NCBI GenBank assembly: GCA_965202605.1 | Contig: OZ241838.1 | Location: forward strand, 3,325,008 to 3,389,007 | DNA: 64,000 nt | Direction: 5' to 3' | Source of the DNA: a bacterium | Lineage (GTDB): Bacteria; JAAXHH01 | Shown: in pieces, positions 20,084 through 37,471 of the stretch | Layout: each line of letters opens with the position of its first letter | Numbering within the stretch: position 1 is the stretch's first letter | The notes under the pieces: generated by a model | Told to the model about the DNA's origin: nothing | Databases searched by the model: none | What the model saw: the letters and a program-made list of their open reading frames with translations, nothing else | Translations under genes and position numbers: made by a program

Positions 20084-23000
20084 TTACCTCCCTGGACGCC
20101 ATCCTTTACGAACAGCGTTTTCCAACTTGCCGATCTCCCTTCCTATTTCATTCAGTTTCGGGTACAACAGGTGATTGTAGGCAGCCTCTCCGCCAACAAA
20201 AACCAATCCAACCGCTGCCCCAGCCAATAATCCATATGGTCCGCCGTATGCAGATGCAACCAGGTATCCGGTCGCGGTAGATGCGCCGTACCCGGTGAAA
20301 ACGTAAGCGAATTCGCCTACACTGATTCGTCCCTTTTGCATTGCTCGGAAATCATGGAGTATACCCAAAGAAGAAGCAAGCGGACCTACCCTACCCAAGT
20401 GCCTTCTGATAGTCTCCAAGCTTCTATAGATAACCAAGGTTCTTCTACTGCCCATCAAGTCTTGAATTGTCGTGGAGTTCCTATATCTTAGCACCCCTAA
20501 TTCGACAGTAGCTATACCTGCGGACACATACTCACCACCACTACGTACAATGCGCCTTGCTGTGTTCAGGGTTTCAATGTTGAAGTAAGGCGAGCCTTGT
20601 TTTTCAACATCGAACCTGGCACCCCAGGCGCGATCAAACCACAAGTGATTGTAATGACGCTGCCCCCATACGACCACCGGATCCATCTCGTATACATCCA
20701 CCTCTCCGTCACCGTTCTTGTCCTCCCACTCGAGTCCGTATTGGTCAATGCGATTTACCGGATTACTGCCGGTATAGGCATATGCGCTGAATTCAGGATC
20801 TTTCAAGGCCAGCGGGTCTGCTTGCAGGAACCGCAGCGACTCCGATCGGTAAGTCCGAAACGGCATGAAGTCCAGTCTGGATTCTTCATCCCTCTCGTGG
20901 CCGGTGAACTTGAACGGCGTGCTGTCCGTGCCGCTCGAGGCCAGGACCTCTCCGTAGGGCCAGTAGTCGTAGGTGGCGGCAGCCGTGCCGCTTGACGAAA
21001 GCAGTGTTCTCGTGCTTCCCAGATGATCCTTAAGGTAGTAGGAAACCACCCCGCCCGCAACTCTGGCCAGGCGCTCGCCGCCGGCATACACGTAGGCGGC
21101 GGTCAGGTTGCCGGCGCCGTCATAAGTGGCGAGCACGCTGCCGCCCGCGCCCCTGACGTAGTACGTCGTCTGCCCGCCGCCGGCCTTCTTCACGCGGTAG
21201 CCCTCGGCGTCCAGGGTGTACGCGTAGGCGCCGTAGCCGGTGACCAGGCCGCGGTGGTCGTAGGCCATGGCGGTCCCCGCCACCGAGGTGGCCGATCCAT
21301 TGGCATTGTACAGGAAGTAGTCGGTACTTCCGTCTACGATGAGGCTGTCCAGCCGGTTGGGGGTTGAACCGCGCGAGTAGGAATAGGTGGCCGTGTCGCC
21401 GTCGGTCGCGACGTGCGTGATATTGCCGTTGGCGTCGTAGGCGTAGGTCCTGGCGTGGGCGCTGCCCAGGCCCATGGTCTCGAGGCGGTGCAGGCCGTCG
21501 TAGGTATAGGAGGCGGTTTTCAGGGCTTCGGACGCGGTGCGGCGGTAGCGCTGGGAAGTGACGTTGCCCACCGCGTCATACATCTGGCTCAGGGTGAACC
21601 TGCCGGGATAGCTTATCCGGCTCACCCAGTCGCGCACGTTGTATGCGTAGGCGCCGGTGGCCAGGCTGCCGCCGACCGTGTGGGTGCTCATGCGTCCGTC
21701 GCCGTCGTAGCCGTAGGCCGCCAGGGCGCTTCCCTCGGCGTCCGTCACGCCCGCCAGGCGACCCGCCGCATCGTAGGCGTAATGGACCTCGCCGCCGTCT
21801 GGATAGACCATGGCGGTCACCTTGCCGGCCAGGTCGTAGCGATAGCCTATGTCCTTGTCGGGCAGCGTATCGATGGCTACCCGCCGGAGGACGACGCGTC
21901 CTTCGTGGTCGTAGGCGATACGCGTAGCGACCTCGGCCGCGGCGTCGGCATCGGTATTCTGCTCGATCCGCGTGGGACGGCCCACGGGAAAGGTGGCCCG
22001 CACGCCCCATGCGTTCGACGCACCCGATTCGCCCGTATCATAGCTGTACCGGCTCGTCCACGAGGCCGCGTCGGTCTCGAAGGCGTAGGCCCTGTTCGGG
22101 TCGAGCGAGGCGAGGGTCCGCGTCACCTCGCCGGAGCGGACCATGCGGTTGAACCTGTCGTAGGCAAAATAGCTGACCTTGCCGCCTGCGGCCTGCTGCG
22201 CGTCCTGTGAGAAACGCACGTTGTGACGGCTATCGTACTTGTACTTCGTCGTGCCCGCGTCCGGCTGCGTTTTCGAGACCATGTCGCCGTGGGCGTCGTA
22301 GGTATACGTCGTCGCGTCGCCCATGGGCGCGGTGGACCTGACCAGTCGTCCCAGGCCGTCGTAGGCGAAGCGCGTCGTGGTTTCGTCGGTCCCGCCGGAG
22401 TCGGCTACGGCGGCCACGACCTGCCCCCACCTGTCGAAGTGGCTGGTCACGCGTCTTCCGAGCTCGTCGGTGACGGTCTCGAAGCGGTTCTCCATGCTCA
22501 CGCGGGCGAGATCGCCCTTGCCGTATACGATGCTGGAGGAGACGGTCTCTCCGGGCACCGTGACGGTCTTCGTACGCATGAGGGGATCGGCGGCGTAGGC
22601 GGTTCGGGTCGTCCGCGGCGTCACAGGCGCGGTCACGGAATCCGTCCGCGCGGTCGTTACCCCCACGGGCAGGGTCTGCGACACGGGTCTTCCCAGGCCG
22701 TTGTAGGCGGTGTGCGTCACCAGGTCGCGGCCGCCCGTATTGACGCGCTGCTGCATGGGCCTGCTGCTCGCGTCGTAGTAGGCGACGCTCTGCGTGGAGG
22801 CGCCCAGGTAGAGTCCGGCGACGTGGAAACGGCCGCCGCGGCCGCGCAGGGTGAGTTCGGGACGCCAGCCTGAGGGGAAACCGCTACGGCTCGCCCGCGC
22901 GCCCTGGCTCTTCCTGGCGGAGGCGAAGTTGTCGTACCGCATCACCGAGGCGTAGATATCGCCGCCCGCGGTGACGTCGATCTCGCAGGCGTACCACGCC

Positions 23001-23332: not shown

Positions 23333-23648
23333 GAAGTCGGCGCCGGGCTTCAGGTGCGTGCCCGGGCCCAGGACGATGCGCCGCCACGCTGTGATCCGGC
23401 CTGCAACGTCTCAACACCTCAGACACGATACTGATCTGATCAACGGGTAAAACCGCAGGTCTTTCGTTCTACAACCATGAAAGACAGCATCAGTCGCCGG
23501 GTTATCTCGCTCCAGCCAAGGTGCATTTCGAACAGCAGTCACATATCGAGGATCCACTTTGAAGATTGCGATCTGTGGTCCATGCTTTGGGGCAAGTTCA
23601 AAAACATATCGGTTCGTTGTCCTCTGGACCGAGTCAACTCCACCCGTA

Positions 23649-24146
23649 CTATCTCCATCTGAGGGTATTGAACCCGCGTTTCTTACGTTCGGAGGGAATA
23701 CCTTCCATTCGTCCAAGTATTTGATCCATCTTGGGCATCAACAAACATGTAATGATCAGCTCACCTCCGGATCGCAGTAACAAACGAGCGTAGTAATACT
23801 CCTCCATTGAAAAAAACGTTATCCAACTTCCCTTATCTATGCTAGCGGATCTGTATACAATACAGTGCTCTATATCTTCTGCTTTGAATACCTCTTCCTG
23901 ACCGTTTGTGTATCGTATGATCTCGTTTTCGGTCACCGCATATTCCTCTCCGCGGTTCTTATGCCAGTACTGCAAATGGAGATACAGAGCTGGGAGAAAA
24001 TCTATTAGAAAAACAATACCAAATATGATAGACAAGGATGTATCGAATTCGAACCAGTAAAGTGTCGCTAAAAACAATGCAGGTAGTATAAAAGCGTGAT
24101 GGATTACTATCATGTGGTTGATTGGATTAATCCTGTACCTTTTCAT
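23649..24146 (-). CDS. Small membrane protein, candidate Rhs-toxin immunity protein (paralog of 19243..19728)
   Basis: 165 aa, two N-terminal hydrophobic helices, shared motifs (FGIVFL.DFLP.LYLHLQYW...YYYARLLLRSG) with the 19243..19728 product. Confidence 0.5.
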   Translation of the reverse strand: MKRYRINPINHMIVIHHAFILPALFLATLYWFEFDTSLSIIFGIVFLIDFLPALYLHLQYWHKNRGEEYAVTENEIIRYTNGQEEVFKAEDIEHCIVYRSASIDKGSWITFFSMEEYYYARLLLRSGGELIITCLLMPKMDQILGRMEGIPSERKKRGFNTLRWR

Positions 24147-24503
24147 TACTATACTCCTCCGATATGTTATAGAGTTTCATGTTTTCTTGAACAGTTATTG
24201 GTTCATTCAGGAGTGGTCTTGAATCGCAATTTACAGTTCCTGGTCGACAGGTAGAACAAGGCTGAATGTCATCAATTGCTATCGGTAAAGATATTGGTGT
24301 ATTCGACCCGGGCTGGTTGCCTTCAGCTTTGGAACCAACTCATCTTCGATCAAGCAGTTCGCATTCCAAGTTGGCGAGCAAGTTACGCGCAGGGCTCTGC
24401 CGGGTCAGTCTTCGACAGAGCCCTGGAGGGTCGGAAGCCGATCTACCTGGATCGTACACACAGGCCTCGAAGAAGCTAAGACCTTGGTTGCTTTGGGCGT
24501 TGA

Positions 24504-25085
24504 CTACCTCCTCGAAAGCCAGCCCTTACGGACAGCATTTTCCAAGTTTCCGATCTCCCTACCTATTTGATTTAATTTAGGATACAGATTACTGTAGGCA
24601 GCTTCTCCGCCAACAAAAACCAAACCAACCGCTGCCCCAGCCAATAATCCATATGGTCCGCCGTATGCAGATGCAACCAAGTATCCTGTTGCGGCAGATG
24701 CACCGAATCCCGTAGAAATGTAAGTGAATCTGCCTACACCGATTTTACCAGTTTGCATTGCACGAAAATCAAAAGCCAAACTTAAAACAGAAGTAAAAAG
24801 GCCAACCCTGCCCAAGATCGACCTGGCAGCTCCCAAGTCTCTATACACCGCATACAGCCTGGGTGGGTTGTCTATCAAGTCATCGATCGATGAGAAATTC
24901 CCATACCTACGTACCCCGATTTCGACGGCGCTTATACCAGCGGCTCCATACTCGACTCCGCTACGTACAATGCGCCTTGCTGTGTTCAGGGTTTCAATGT
25001 TAAAGTAAGGAGATCCTTGTATTTCAACGTCGAACCTGGCACCCCATGCGCGATCGAACCACAAGTGATTGTAATGACGCTGCCC
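24504..25085 (-). CDS. Rhs C-terminal variable domain, separated from the Rhs core by an in-frame TAG
   Basis: In frame with the Rhs core at 25086..30071. The codon corresponding to TGG (Trp) in the orphan copy (VVVWGQRHYNHLWFDRAWG) is TAG here. Downstream sequence continues the homology. Confidence 0.5.
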   Translation of the reverse strand, partial: GQRHYNHLWFDRAWGARFDVEIQGSPYFNIETLNTARRIVRSGVEYGAAGISAVEIGVRRYGNFSSIDDLIDNPPRLYAVYRDLGAARSILGRVGLFTSVLSLAFDFRAMQTGKIGVGRFTYISTGFGASAATGYLVASAYGGPYGLLAGAAVGLVFVGGEAAYSNLYPKLNQIGREIGNLENAVRKGWLSRR

Positions 25086-34877: not shown

Positions 34878-35588
34878 ATGCGGTCCATTTTCGTCGGCAT
34901 CGAATACGCCGGCAAGTCCACCCTCATCGATCTGCTGGACGCCTACTACCAGAAACGTCGGCGCCGGACGCATCTCGACGATCACTTCACCATCCCGGAC
35001 GCGTCCCTGAGTCCCACGTCCCGGGCGCAGTACGTCCACTACCCCGACGACGTGAAGGAACGCATGCAGCGGATGCAGCTCCACTACCACGTGGAGGTCA
35101 TCCGGAACTACCCCCATACGCTGATCGCGGGCTGGCATATCGAGGAAGCCATCTACTGCGACGTGTACGGCAACGTGGCGGGGAACCCGTACTATCCCAA
35201 CTACGTCCACCACAACCAGCGGCACTACGAGGTGCTGGTGCTGGAAGCCCGGCTGCCCGACGTCGTGCTGATCCACCTCACGGCCGACGACGAGGCGATC
35301 CGGGAACGCATGCGCACCGATCCCCACGAGTACCAGATCATCGACGAAAAGGATATACCGGATCTCAAGAAACGCTTCGAGGACGAGGTCGACCGGTCGC
35401 TCCTTACGCGCAACGGCCACCTCGTCACGCTGGATACGACCGAAAAGTCGCCGGAGGAGTCGCTGGACGAATTGCTGCTGAAGACCGATCCGATCGTGAC
35501 CGACGGGGAACTGGCCATGCGGGCCATGCCGGTGCCCGAAGGGGATTACGAGGTCCAGTACGAGAACAGGGTAAGGAAGATGGTGTGA
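34878..35588 (+). CDS. P-loop NTPase, kinase-like, hypothetical
   Basis: Walker A-like GIEYAGKST near the N-terminus. No confident family. Confidence 0.45.
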   Translation: MRSIFVGIEYAGKSTLIDLLDAYYQKRRRRTHLDDHFTIPDASLSPTSRAQYVHYPDDVKERMQRMQLHYHVEVIRNYPHTLIAGWHIEEAIYCDVYGNVAGNPYYPNYVHHNQRHYEVLVLEARLPDVVLIHLTADDEAIRERMRTDPHEYQIIDEKDIPDLKKRFEDEVDRSLLTRNGHLVTLDTTEKSPEESLDELLLKTDPIVTDGELAMRAMPVPEGDYEVQYENRVRKMV

Positions 35589-35705
35589 AGCTCGATGGAT
35601 GGCAGGAACCAGTGCACATCTTTTACTGGCTGATTCAGATTTGGTTACGAGATTGCCGACTTGATATCGACTAACTCGGTATGGAACTGAAACGACGTTC
35701 TCAGG

Positions 35706-35945
35706 TTGGTTTATTCAGGCCGGCAAATGGAACACCACATGAAGACTGATCCTAATAAGACAACTTTGAATGAGCATCTTAATGCGAGGCTAAATCGCGA
35801 TGCCGGTGTCGTTGTGCATGATTCAATAGATGGCGAACTCGGTTTACTCTACGATGCTGCGGACAATACCGTTTGGCTCTGTTGGAAGGAAAATGGGAGT
35901 ATTTACATGGAGGATAATCCCTGCTCAGTCAAGGAGCCGGCATGA
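35706..35945 (+). CDS. Hypothetical small protein in a low-GC patch
   Basis: 79-aa ORF with AT-richer composition than surroundings; stop overlaps the start of the next small ORF (ATGA). Confidence 0.3.
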   Translation: MVYSGRQMEHHMKTDPNKTTLNEHLNARLNRDAGVVVHDSIDGELGLLYDAADNTVWLCWKENGSIYMEDNPCSVKEPA

Positions 35946-36166
35946 GTGAGAGCGAATGGTTACCTCCGTTAATAACGGTGGTTGGTGCTGCTATTGTTGG
36001 ATTCGCCGGACTGGTTGCTGGTTGGCTGTTTTTCGTTCGTGGGAATATGGCCACCAAGAATGATATCAATGGCATTAACAAAACAATTCACGATATGAAT
36101 ACTCTATTGGGTAACGTAGAGGGTAAAGTCAGTATTCATGATTTGAAATTGGTTGAAAGAAACTGA
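35942..36166 (+). CDS. Hypothetical small membrane protein in a low-GC patch
   Basis: 74 aa with one hydrophobic helix (LITVVGAAIVGFAGLVAGWLFF). Translationally coupled to the upstream small ORF. Confidence 0.3.
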   Translation: MSESEWLPPLITVVGAAIVGFAGLVAGWLFFVRGNMATKNDINGINKTIHDMNTLLGNVEGKVSIHDLKLVERN

Positions 36167-36225
36167 AGTAGTTGATAAAACAAAATGTCAGTGAATTCGA
36201 TCATCGACATATTAGTTACATACTC

Positions 36226-36256
36226 AAAAGCCCCGGGCAGAAAGCTCGGGGCTTTT
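36226..36256. terminator. Rho-independent terminator-like hairpin between convergent genes
   Basis: aaaagccccg (36226-36235), 11-nt loop, cggggctttt (36247-36256). Perfect 10-bp stem flanked by A-run and T-run, so it could act in both directions. Confidence 0.5.
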
Positions 36257-36331
36257 CAATACTGAGTGGTGATTCAGGGCTATTTCCAATTAAAACCAAT
36301 ACTTACCGGTTTATCAGGCTTTGTCGGGTCT

Positions 36332-37471
36332 CTACGCCGCCAGACCCTTGCCCTGGGCTTCCTTGACACATTCCGCGAGGATGGGTATGCCTTCGTGGAT
36401 ATCCTCGATCGTGGGGAACCCGTAGGCAATGCGCAGGTAGGGTACGTCCTCGCCCGTGGCGCTGAAGCCCTGTCCGGGGGTGTAGTAGACTCCACGGCTT
36501 GCCGCTGCCTGGTGGACCTTGCGCGTGTCCGCCGCCGAGGGGATCCTGACCCATACGAACATGCCGCCGGGCGGATCCGTCCAGCATACCTCCTCACCCA
36601 GATCACTGAAGTGGGTCGATAACGAATCGACTACGGCGTCCTTGCGCGCCTTCATGACGGCGTTCACCTCTCGGATGTGGTCCCAGAGATGTTCGCCGAA
36701 GTATTCGGCCACGATCATGCTCGCCAGGGCATTCGTTCCCCCGTCCATCTTGTTCGCCATGATCCGCTGCTGCAACGTCTCCGGCGCCATGAAGTACCCC
36801 TGCCGGACGCCCGGTCCGAGGATCTTGGAGAATGAACCGACGTAAACGACCCGTTCGTCTTCGTCCAGATGATACAGGTTCGGCGGCACCGGTTCGGTCT
36901 GGAACACGATGTCCCCGTAGCAGTGGTCGTCCACCACCAGCGTATCGAATTCACGGGCCAGTTCGAGCAGGCGTTCCCGCCGGTCCAGCGAGAGGATGGA
37001 GCCCGTGGGGTTGTGATGCGTGGGAATGGTATAGATGAATTTCGGCGGCGTTCCCGCGTCGATGAGCCACTTCAACACCGTCTCCAGTTCGTCCGGCACC
37101 AGGCCGTGGTCATCGATAGGCGTTGGCGCGATGCGCACCTGCCGGCTTCGGAACACGCTCAGCGACCCGCCGTAGGAAAAGGATTCCGTGACGATCGTGT
37201 CGCCGGGAGACGCGAAGGCGTCCGTGATCAACTGCAGCGCCTGCATCGATCCGGATGTCAAGACGATCTCCTCCAGGGGCACCGCCCGTCCGGCGCTGCG
37301 CTCGAACCGTTCCGAAGCGATGGCCCGCAGCGGTTCGTAACCCCGGCCGTCCGGGTAATTCACGAGTTCTGCCCCGCGGGTGGAAATCACCTTCGCGGCG
37401 GCCTCGGCCAGCGCATCTGAAGGGAAGGACAACGGGTCGGGCCTTCCTGCGCCGAGATTGATCTCACGCAT
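36332..37471 (-). CDS. PLP-dependent aminotransferase (class I/II fold)
   Basis: Aminotransferase-like motifs including SFSKILGPGVRQGY (PLP-lysine region). Probable ATG at 37471 preceded by AGGAG; the ORF track extends to 37543. Confidence 0.75.
   Translation of the reverse strand: MREINLGAGRPDPLSFPSDALAEAAAKVISTRGAELVNYPDGRGYEPLRAIASERFERSAGRAVPLEEIVLTSGSMQALQLITDAFASPGDTIVTESFSYGGSLSVFRSRQVRIAPTPIDDHGLVPDELETVLKWLIDAGTPPKFIYTIPTHHNPTGSILSLDRRERLLELAREFDTLVVDDHCYGDIVFQTEPVPPNLYHLDEDERVVYVGSFSKILGPGVRQGYFMAPETLQQRIMANKMDGGTNALASMIVAEYFGEHLWDHIREVNAVMKARKDAVVDSLSTHFSDLGEEVCWTDPPGGMFVWVRIPSAADTRKVHQAAASRGVYYTPGQGFSATGEDVPYLRIAYGFPTIEDIHEGIPILAECVKEAQGKGLAA

Follow-up and report, generated by a model that had tools for sequence, protein, structure and literature searches.

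Two overlapping small open reading frames (ORFs), here called ORF1 and ORF2, occupy a low-G+C patch in a 64,000-nucleotide stretch of a bacterial genome (the window; contig OZ241838.1 of assembly GCA_965202605.1, positions 3,325,008 to 3,389,007), where they lie between a P-loop kinase-like gene and a convergent aminotransferase gene. We consider it reasonably likely that the two ORFs are a real operon of two genes that was acquired horizontally, that this operon is the remaining core of a strain-variable, low-G+C islet of small genes, and that it encodes an accessory membrane-anchored complex. The pair joins two small-protein families, both uncharacterised, in a combination not described before, and its description makes of two anonymous ORFs a defined unit that can be tested and that bears the marks of co-transfer. 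The result is modest and descriptive; it is unlikely to surprise specialists and opens no long-standing question.

An initial annotation of the window had likened the layout to a small two-gene cassette, such as a toxin-antitoxin or membrane-peptide pair. The cassette idea was borne out, in that ORF1 and ORF2 overlap through an ATGA stop/start in each of three genomic contexts, share homology between contexts over the ORFs only, and are under purifying selection. The toxin-antitoxin identity found no such support and is weighed below.

Distribution, composition and selection of the gene pair

The conservation on which the cassette idea depended was found: the pair is kept, intact or nearly so, at 12 loci in three unrelated genomic contexts. 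In the first of these, which belongs to a Gemmatimonadota lineage, loci L003-L009 are syntenic with the window and share with it the PhyH, creatininase and kinase-like genes, the islet, the convergent aminotransferase and an ABC transporter, with flanks that are 85-91% identical to the window at the nucleotide level. One of them, L008, comes from the Gemmatimonadetes metagenome-assembled genome (MAG) APA_bin_41 and carries an islet near-identical to those of L005-L007. A MAG of the same APA_bin naming scheme has been assigned to the sponge Aplysina aerophoba (PMC11706023), and from this shared naming the L008 MAG apparently also originates from a sponge symbiont. The second context, represented by L001 and L002, is a lower-GC genome (0.45-0.52). 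There, genes for an N6/N4 methyltransferase and a BglII-type endonuclease precede the pair by 267 nt, and a HEPN_AbiU2 gene adjoins them. In the third (L031), the pair sits in a low-GC patch within higher-GC flanks.

The composition of the pair sets it apart from its host in the window. As initially annotated, G+C content drops across the patch, from 61% in the window to 44% (0.437 over 35589-36331; the whole window has 0.606 and the genes on either side 0.61-0.65). The contrast is larger for G+C content at third codon positions (GC3), which is 0.46 in ORF1 and 0.40 in ORF2 versus 0.80-0.87 in five neighbouring host genes. The L001 pair and its restriction-modification neighbours have GC3 values of 0.42-0.54, matching those of the window pair, and this likeness, together with the difference from the host, points to a foreign origin of the pair. 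Comparable low-GC patches make up ~11% of the window, and the ORF1-ORF2 patch is not the sole one.

Only the two ORFs are alignable at the DNA level between contexts (window 35731/35740-36169), and homology confined in this way fits co-transfer of ORF1 and ORF2 as a unit. Within the syntenic clade, synonymous divergence (dS) of the pair is 0.2-0.4 and that of the kinase-like gene 0.32-0.42; these similar values indicate vertical inheritance in that clade since acquisition. Among plasmid records there was no match to ORF1. An integron gene cassette was considered and rejected: the DNA 3' of ORF2 is unrelated across the three contexts, with no shared attC-like sequence, and no GTTRRRY/RYYYAAC pair was seen on reading 36167-36331.

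Both ORFs are constrained at the protein level. ORF1 homologues are 68 aa long and 88-91% identical, with a ratio of nonsynonymous to synonymous substitution (dN/dS, Nei-Gojobori) of 0.04-0.15; ORF2 relatives are 76-96% identical, with dN/dS of 0.04-0.10. Compared with L001, the most divergent copy, both genes are saturated at synonymous sites (dS > 1.3), yet the ORF1 proteins remain 91% and the ORF2 proteins 78% identical. This purifying selection (dN/dS 0.04-0.15 over the two genes) and the conservation of the pair exclude the reading that ORF1 and ORF2 are spurious ORFs. Their arrangement is equally constant: the AAGGA ahead of ORF2 and the ATGA overlap are kept in all 12 loci and all three contexts.

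The ORF1 and ORF2 protein families

Two overlapping small ORFs had been annotated at first, and this stands, with the exception of the size of the first. The 79 aa given to ORF1 (from TTG 35706) are an over-extension, since all homologues begin at MKTDP; the matching start is ATG 35739, with a product of 68 aa, and the DNA upstream of it is unrelated between contexts. Searched in full with an HMMER profile, 1.84 billion representatives yielded only ~10 small-protein clusters of this family, 54-94 aa in length, with the motif DPNKTTLN..L.A..N...G.VH...LL....WLCWKENGSIYLED.P. The ORF1 cluster has no NCBI-sourced member. In the deposited L008 record (JAPOOT010000203.1), the locus tags OXD39_05810 (for p79, an islet gene described below) and OXD39_05820 (ORF2) leave room for a single gene between them, so that either the islet gene p91 or ORF1 is apparently unannotated in that MAG.

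ORF1 has no hydrophobic stretch like that of ORF2. An AlphaFold2 model built from 12 sequences (predicted local distance difference test score, pLDDT, 83) consists mainly of beta structure and has a single short helix, and a Foldseek search of this model against PDB and BFVD returned nothing at E<0.7. An earlier model from 3 sequences (pLDDT 68) gave chance Foldseek matches only; an AP2 domain suggested by that first model (E 0.3) was rejected, as its elements were in the wrong order and the match was gone with the better model. When 12 family members were compared with curated families, only coiled-coil/transmembrane noise was obtained, and ORF1 contained no Pfam DNA-binding domain and no ribbon-helix-helix, helix-turn-helix or AbrB-type domain. 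ORF1 is a soluble protein, beta-rich according to the AlphaFold2 model, and belongs to a very rare family for which no curated profile exists.

The genes next to ORF1 relatives (45-57% identity) vary and include genes for a HicB-like antitoxin and an IS1595 transposase, an HsdR_N-like gene and an uncharacterised gene of 212 aa; none of these neighbours is ORF2-like. Two HHH_3-domain proteins, encoded beside the pair in L001 (700-2274) and beside the ORF1 homologue P0129 in L015 (5785-7428), are 67% identical over their full length, which indicates that the two lineages are related and that both keep an ORF1-family gene in the adjoining variable region.

ORF2 is, as initially described, a 74-aa protein with one transmembrane helix. 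Its single hydrophobic segment spans residues ~7-31 (mean Kyte-Doolittle value of 2.21 over 19 residues) and has an acidic N-flank and a basic C-flank. The tail that follows is heptad-patterned, with hydrophobic residues spaced 3-4 apart over residues 42-63, and has at its end the family motif LGxVEG, within which lies a GxxxG. When ORF2, close relatives and two paralogues from the islet, p79 and p97, were combined into a profile, 210 proteins of 67-102 aa were retrieved at E<=0.01; in pairwise BLASTP, ORF2 matches p97 and p79 at E 1e-6 and 7e-6, respectively. These proteins share an N-terminal transmembrane helix, a variable count of short ELTAIRTEM-like repeats and a C-terminal HDMNTRLGxVEG. 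In the family alignment L56, G57, V59, E60 and G61 are invariant and N53, T54 and R55 nearly so; in the window, residue 55 is Leu, whereas all 33 other aligned members have Arg.

On these sequence features ORF2 is assigned to an uncurated family of single-pass membrane proteins, defined here as the HDMNTRLGxVEG family, of which it is a divergent member without ELTAIRTEM-like repeats. The family is sizeable, often present in several copies and found in no curated database; its named members are called "hypothetical protein", and nearly all belong to Gemmatimonadota MAGs, one being from Zixibacteria. The motif string RLGRVEG did not occur in the literature searched. Several paralogues can be found on single contigs. 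Tandem arrays of up to four, 79-127 aa long and with varying repeat number, are present in L030 (2568-4479, four copies) and in L028/L029 (~2666-5500). After the arrays in L028-L030 come two overlapping genes of 85 and 89 aa, one of them encoding a coiled-coil protein anchored in the membrane at its C-terminus; nearby are a SocA_Panacea-domain gene in L029 and a DDE transposase in L030. The closest ORF2 relatives outside the clade that carries the pair, P0025 and P0044 (44-46% identity), are solo genes without ORF1. Near P0044, L010 215-2982 holds a NotI-type endonuclease, a D12-class methylase and a small DUF2283 gene, and is a further restriction-modification and small-gene neighbourhood.

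The architecture of the ORF2 family, in which 70-100 aa comprise an N-terminal transmembrane helix and, after it, a heptad-patterned helix, is like that of several known anchored coiled-coil families (DUF948/YtxG-like, FtsL-like, CCDC90-like/DUF1640, DUF2730 and Rz-like i-spanins). Several paralogues have weak hmmscan matches to these, all far under curated cut-offs, and ORF2 itself has none at E<=0.01. More broadly, 34 family members compared with curated models gave only sub-threshold coiled-coil/transmembrane noise. The HDMNTRLGxVEG motif and the ELTAIRTEM-type repeats are features of the ORF2 family and not of the DUF948, FtsL-like, CCDC90-like, DUF2730 or i-spanin families.

The resemblance to i-spanins, which are likewise N-terminally anchored coiled coils, raises the idea that the pair is left over from a phage cassette for lysis or superinfection exclusion, in which a holin-, spanin- or Imm-like membrane protein is joined by an accessory protein. 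Weak PHROG matches to holin, Rz-like spanin and "hol-like" families (E 0.18 for ORF2, down to 1e-4 for some paralogues) point the same way, as do the weak or faint precomputed DUF2730 matches of a few family members. The PHROG matches, however, are at the level of coiled-coil/transmembrane noise and under any curated cut-off; DUF2730 (PF10805) does not match ORF2 at E<=1 and is not among the E<=0.01 matches of the 34 family members. No relatives of ORF1 or ORF2 were present in 2.9 million viral contigs, and the sole ORF1 match in 50,697 phage records was weak and partial (E 0.01, 40% identity, 72% of the query), falling inside a replication-initiator gene in what looks like a chance similarity. 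With no endolysin, terminase or other phage gene at any examined locus, we regard a phage origin as extremely improbable.

If the pair is instead a horizontally acquired operon for a membrane-anchored complex, the features above suggest how it might work. ORF1 and ORF2 would now be transcribed by read-through from the kinase-like operon, with transcription ending at a hairpin beyond ORF2; there is no terminator-like site between the kinase-like gene and ORF1, which makes read-through the likeliest source of expression. Translation of ORF2 would be coupled to that of ORF1 through the ATGA overlap, using the ribosome-binding site AAGGAG inside ORF1. By the positive-inside rule, ORF2 is predicted to lie in the inner membrane with an external N-terminus and a cytoplasmic tail, through which it may self-associate. 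ORF1, supplied in fixed proportion through coupling, could then bind the ORF2 tail and modulate or complete a small membrane-anchored complex. The role of such a complex would be accessory and dispensable, as cargo of a variable island or defence region, and would lie outside core metabolism.

A more specific proposal concerns the fold of ORF1. Residues ~24-50 have in common with the seven-bladed beta-propeller lectins of the DUF346/PLL-PHL type the motif DG-x-L-x-hh...D-N-x-h-W-x-x-W, which covers two consecutive strands. The ORF1 profile matched the Photorhabdus lectin PHL from PDB (E 6e-5, summed over six blades, each of which contributes only 5-7 bits) and a multi-blade protein in the 1.84-billion library (E 1e-6). 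The same profile also captures unrelated repeat proteins (e.g., P0136), so that summed repeat scores inflate significance. In hhalign the comparison of ORF1 with DUF346/PLL reached 9% probability (E 0.0036); the Pfam DUF346 model gave no ORF1 match, and Foldseek with the better model found no propeller. ORF1 would moreover correspond to one unit plus an N-terminal extension, whereas the lectins are repeat arrays. Given the few bits per blade, the low hhalign probability, the missing DUF346 match and the capture of unrelated repeat proteins, the propeller similarity is a weak lead only. It is very improbable that ORF1 is a free-standing, single DUF346/PLL-related blade, assembled into a ring oligomer held by the coiled-coil tail of ORF2, in a possible addiction or defence module. 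Were this true, ORF1 would be a natural case of the stage with one blade that has been postulated in the evolution of propellers, found in a mobile two-gene membrane module.

The strain-variable islet and the toxin-antitoxin question

Mapping of 16 syntenic loci showed that the space between the kinase-like gene and the aminotransferase gene can be described as a series of slots, [p79][p91][ORF1-ORF2][p97], in which p79, ORF2 and p97 are paralogues of one membrane-protein family. Occupancy of the slots differs among strains (Table 1), and the kinase-like gene alongside is 92-95% identical at the amino acid level across all syntenic loci. In the window, p91, a 91-aa gene that is intact in related genomes, survives as a remnant of 17 codons (35686-35736) that corresponds to p91 residues 26-42 (tblastn, 71% identity, E 0.003). 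Global alignment of the window with L004 revealed a 268-bp deletion with breakpoints at 35735|35736, versus 3493|3762 in L004. This deletion fuses the p91 remnant to the ATG of ORF1, removes the native upstream region of ORF1 and accounts for the spurious 79-aa TTG ORF.

The islet also holds a second coupled pair, in the opposite order: the membrane-protein gene p79 comes first and overlaps by 11 nt the gene for soluble p91 (L005 9173-9677). This p79-p91 pair is present as well in L006-L008, L019, L021, L022 and L026, and p91 has no Pfam match. In L003, an insertion sequence with a 305-aa DDE_Tnp_1 transposase (9571-10488) lies between the hairpin and the aminotransferase gene, which marks the kinase-like/aminotransferase interval as an insertion hotspot.

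Several observations weigh against reading the pair as a co-transferred, functioning operon. Homology limited to the ORFs may reflect saturation of unconstrained flanks (dS > 1.3) and not precise mobilisation. Distant homologues of ORF1 and of ORF2 each occur without the partner: the two genes are paired in the 12 loci of the closest clade, and the p97 and p79 paralogues and the ORF2 relatives with 44-46% identity stand without ORF1, which makes the partnership specific to one small clade. We infer the interaction of ORF1 with ORF2 solely from their coupling and co-transfer. Upstream of ORF1 no sigma-70-like promoter was found, in a scan that is uninformative for this phylum. ORF2 is further affected by a +1 frameshift in L006/L007 (the same 42-aa product, P0005, is recorded from JGI and from a Logan assembly), by a 12-nt in-frame deletion in L005 that takes NVEG out of the motif, by W6->TGA in L009 and by R55L in the window. 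Barring assembly errors, three ORF2 alleles are present in one population, as L005-L008 are >=99% identical over the islet. Given these lesions and the deleted upstream region of ORF1, the module may be decaying in the window genome.

Taken further, the same observations would make the cassette a functionless relic in the window genome, a deletion-reduced islet that is en route to loss and carried along by linkage. Its islet is the shortest of the 16 syntenic loci, with p79 gone, p91 down to its 17 codons and the native 5' region of ORF1 deleted; ORF2 carries Leu at the otherwise uniform Arg position, sister lineages have frameshift, deletion and nonsense alleles, and the pair is wholly absent from L019-L026. 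Both reading frames are nevertheless intact in the window, dN/dS between the window and other lineages is low at 0.07-0.15, neither the Shine-Dalgarno sequence nor the ATGA coupling nor the putative terminator has been lost, and read-through from the same-strand upstream operon is possible with no terminator between. A relic in this sense appears quite unlikely.

The toxin-antitoxin part of the initial annotation can be stated as an addiction or abortive-infection module in which ORF2 is a membrane-damaging effector and ORF1 its antidote, spread selfishly or by phage defence. Known systems offer a precedent, as SpoIISA/SpoIISB pairs a membrane-protein toxin with a small protein antidote. The layout is suitable, with two small, coupled genes and the soluble partner upstream, and ORF1 and ORF2 resemble type II modules in being small, co-oriented and coupled, with one product membrane-embedded and the other soluble. 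They resemble them also in a base composition foreign to the host, in variable presence and absence, and in having moved among three contexts, one of them a defence cluster with BglII restriction-modification and HEPN_AbiU2 genes. ORF1-family genes lie near HicB-like, HsdR_N-like, IS1595 and MazE-like genes. Finally, disabling lesions occur in ORF2 only and ORF1 is intact in 12 of 12 pair loci, which is the order expected if a toxin is lost first; three lesions versus none is not significant, however, and would arise by chance with a probability of ~0.14 for genes of equal length.

The protein evidence argues the other way. Neither ORF1 nor ORF2 has a match at or near cut-offs in Pfam, NCBIfam, PADLOC or PHROGs, and profile and structure searches linked neither peptide by sequence, profile or fold to a known toxin, antitoxin or defence family. 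ORF1 lacks the DNA-binding domain (ribbon-helix-helix, helix-turn-helix, AbrB or Phd/YefM) expected of a type II antitoxin, and its model has no antitoxin or DNA-binding fold match. The wider ORF2 family is unpaired, as are the distant homologues of ORF1, and the four tandem copies without a partner are hard to reconcile with a toxic family. A type I system, in which the toxin is almost wholly one transmembrane helix and the antitoxin an antisense or overlapping small RNA, fits poorly: ORF2, at 74 aa with a 40-aa soluble tail, exceeds the usual toxin size of <60 aa, and no Rfam small RNA reached gathering score, though a novel antisense RNA is conceivable. On balance, an addiction module is unlikely. 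If ORF1 and ORF2 did form an addiction or defence module, they would be a new effector/antidote combination; otherwise the family remains the marker of a strain-variable hotspot by which micro-diversity in these populations can be tracked.

Locus layout, probable terminator hairpin and neighbouring low-GC regions

The kinase-like gene to the left of the pair is the last of a same-strand PhyH-creatininase-kinase-like run. On the right, the aminotransferase is 379 aa long when started at MREINLG, as in its homologues (gene calls in L003, L004 and L019-L026); a 403-aa TTG ORF reaches 37543. No meaningful direct or inverted repeats were found bordering the patch, and no tRNA that could have served as an integration target was found. 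The coordinates of the features are collected in Table 1.

Table 1. Features of the window around ORF1-ORF2, genes of the nearby low-GC island, and islet content of the syntenic loci
Feature	Position in window	Strand	Remarks
P-loop kinase-like host gene (left flank)	34878-35588	+	Outside cassette; weak AAA_18 and thymidylate kinase matches; GC3 0.87
Degenerate left part of islet, with p91 remnant	35589-35738	+	GC 0.47
ORF1, 68 aa	35739-35945	+	ATG start
Shine-Dalgarno AAGGAG for ORF2	35931-35936	+	Within ORF1 3' end, 5 nt ahead of ATG
ATGA stop/start overlap ORF1/ORF2	35942-35945	+	Read from sequence
ORF2, 74 aa	35942-36166	+	Single-pass membrane protein (predicted)
Hairpin between convergent ORF2 and aminotransferase genes	36226-36256	either	RNA fold, inverted repeat
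Class I/II aminotransferase host gene (right flank)	36332-37471	-	Pfam Aminotran_1_2, E 7.5e-34
HNH endonuclease	41239-42096	-	Low-GC island
DUF4420 PD-(D/E)XK protein	42279-43271	-	Low-GC island
Z1-domain protein	43268-45415	-	Low-GC island
HATPase_c_3 protein	45402-46973	-	Low-GC island
C5 cytosine methylase	47033-48343	-	Low-GC island
Window islet			Pair only; shortest version
L003/L004 islet			p91, pair; L003 also insertion sequence (DDE transposase) past hairpin
L005-L008 islet			p79, p91, pair
L009 islet			Pair, p97
L019-L026 islet			p79/p91/p97 or subsets; pair absent

The hairpin that follows ORF2 has the sequence AAAAGCCCCGGGC-AGAAA-GCTCGGGGCTTTT and lies 59 nt past the ORF2 stop and 75 nt past the stop of the convergent aminotransferase. 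It had been annotated initially as a perfect 10-bp stem flanked by A and T runs, which is correct for the - strand, where the 10-bp stem is followed by an A-C mismatch and 2 further pairs; on the + strand there are 13 pairs, one of them G.U. The element is bordered by A4 and T4, and its RNA fold has a free energy of -26.8 kcal/mol (z = -5.55 versus shuffles). Its U-tract of only 4 nt per strand leaves it uncalled by the consensus terminator scan, which requires >=5 T in 8, and Rfam gave no family at gathering score for the patch, with sub-threshold matches confined to the hairpin. The hairpin is kept in the syntenic L003-L008, with stem and loop slightly changed, and is absent from L001 and L009; in L031 an unrelated hairpin occupies the equivalent position after ORF2. 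From its sequence, 36226-36256 is a probable bidirectional intrinsic terminator. Like known bidirectional Rho-independent terminators, it combines a 10-13 bp GC-rich stem and a 5-nt loop with an A-run before and a T-run after, so that on either strand the stem is read ahead of a U-tract, and it is placed between convergent stops; it differs in its short U-tracts, and terminator rules are not established for Gemmatimonadota.

Elsewhere in the window, two further low-GC patches (19031-20730 and 23401-25070, GC ~0.46) lie on either side of a 1082-aa ORF and contain ORFs of 161, 141, 165 and 186 aa that had no Pfam match. About 5 kb from the pair, an 8-kb low-GC island (41239-48343, - strand, GC ~0.46) encodes a C5 cytosine methylase and four further proteins (Table 1), and looks like a Dcm-linked, multi-gene restriction/defence island.

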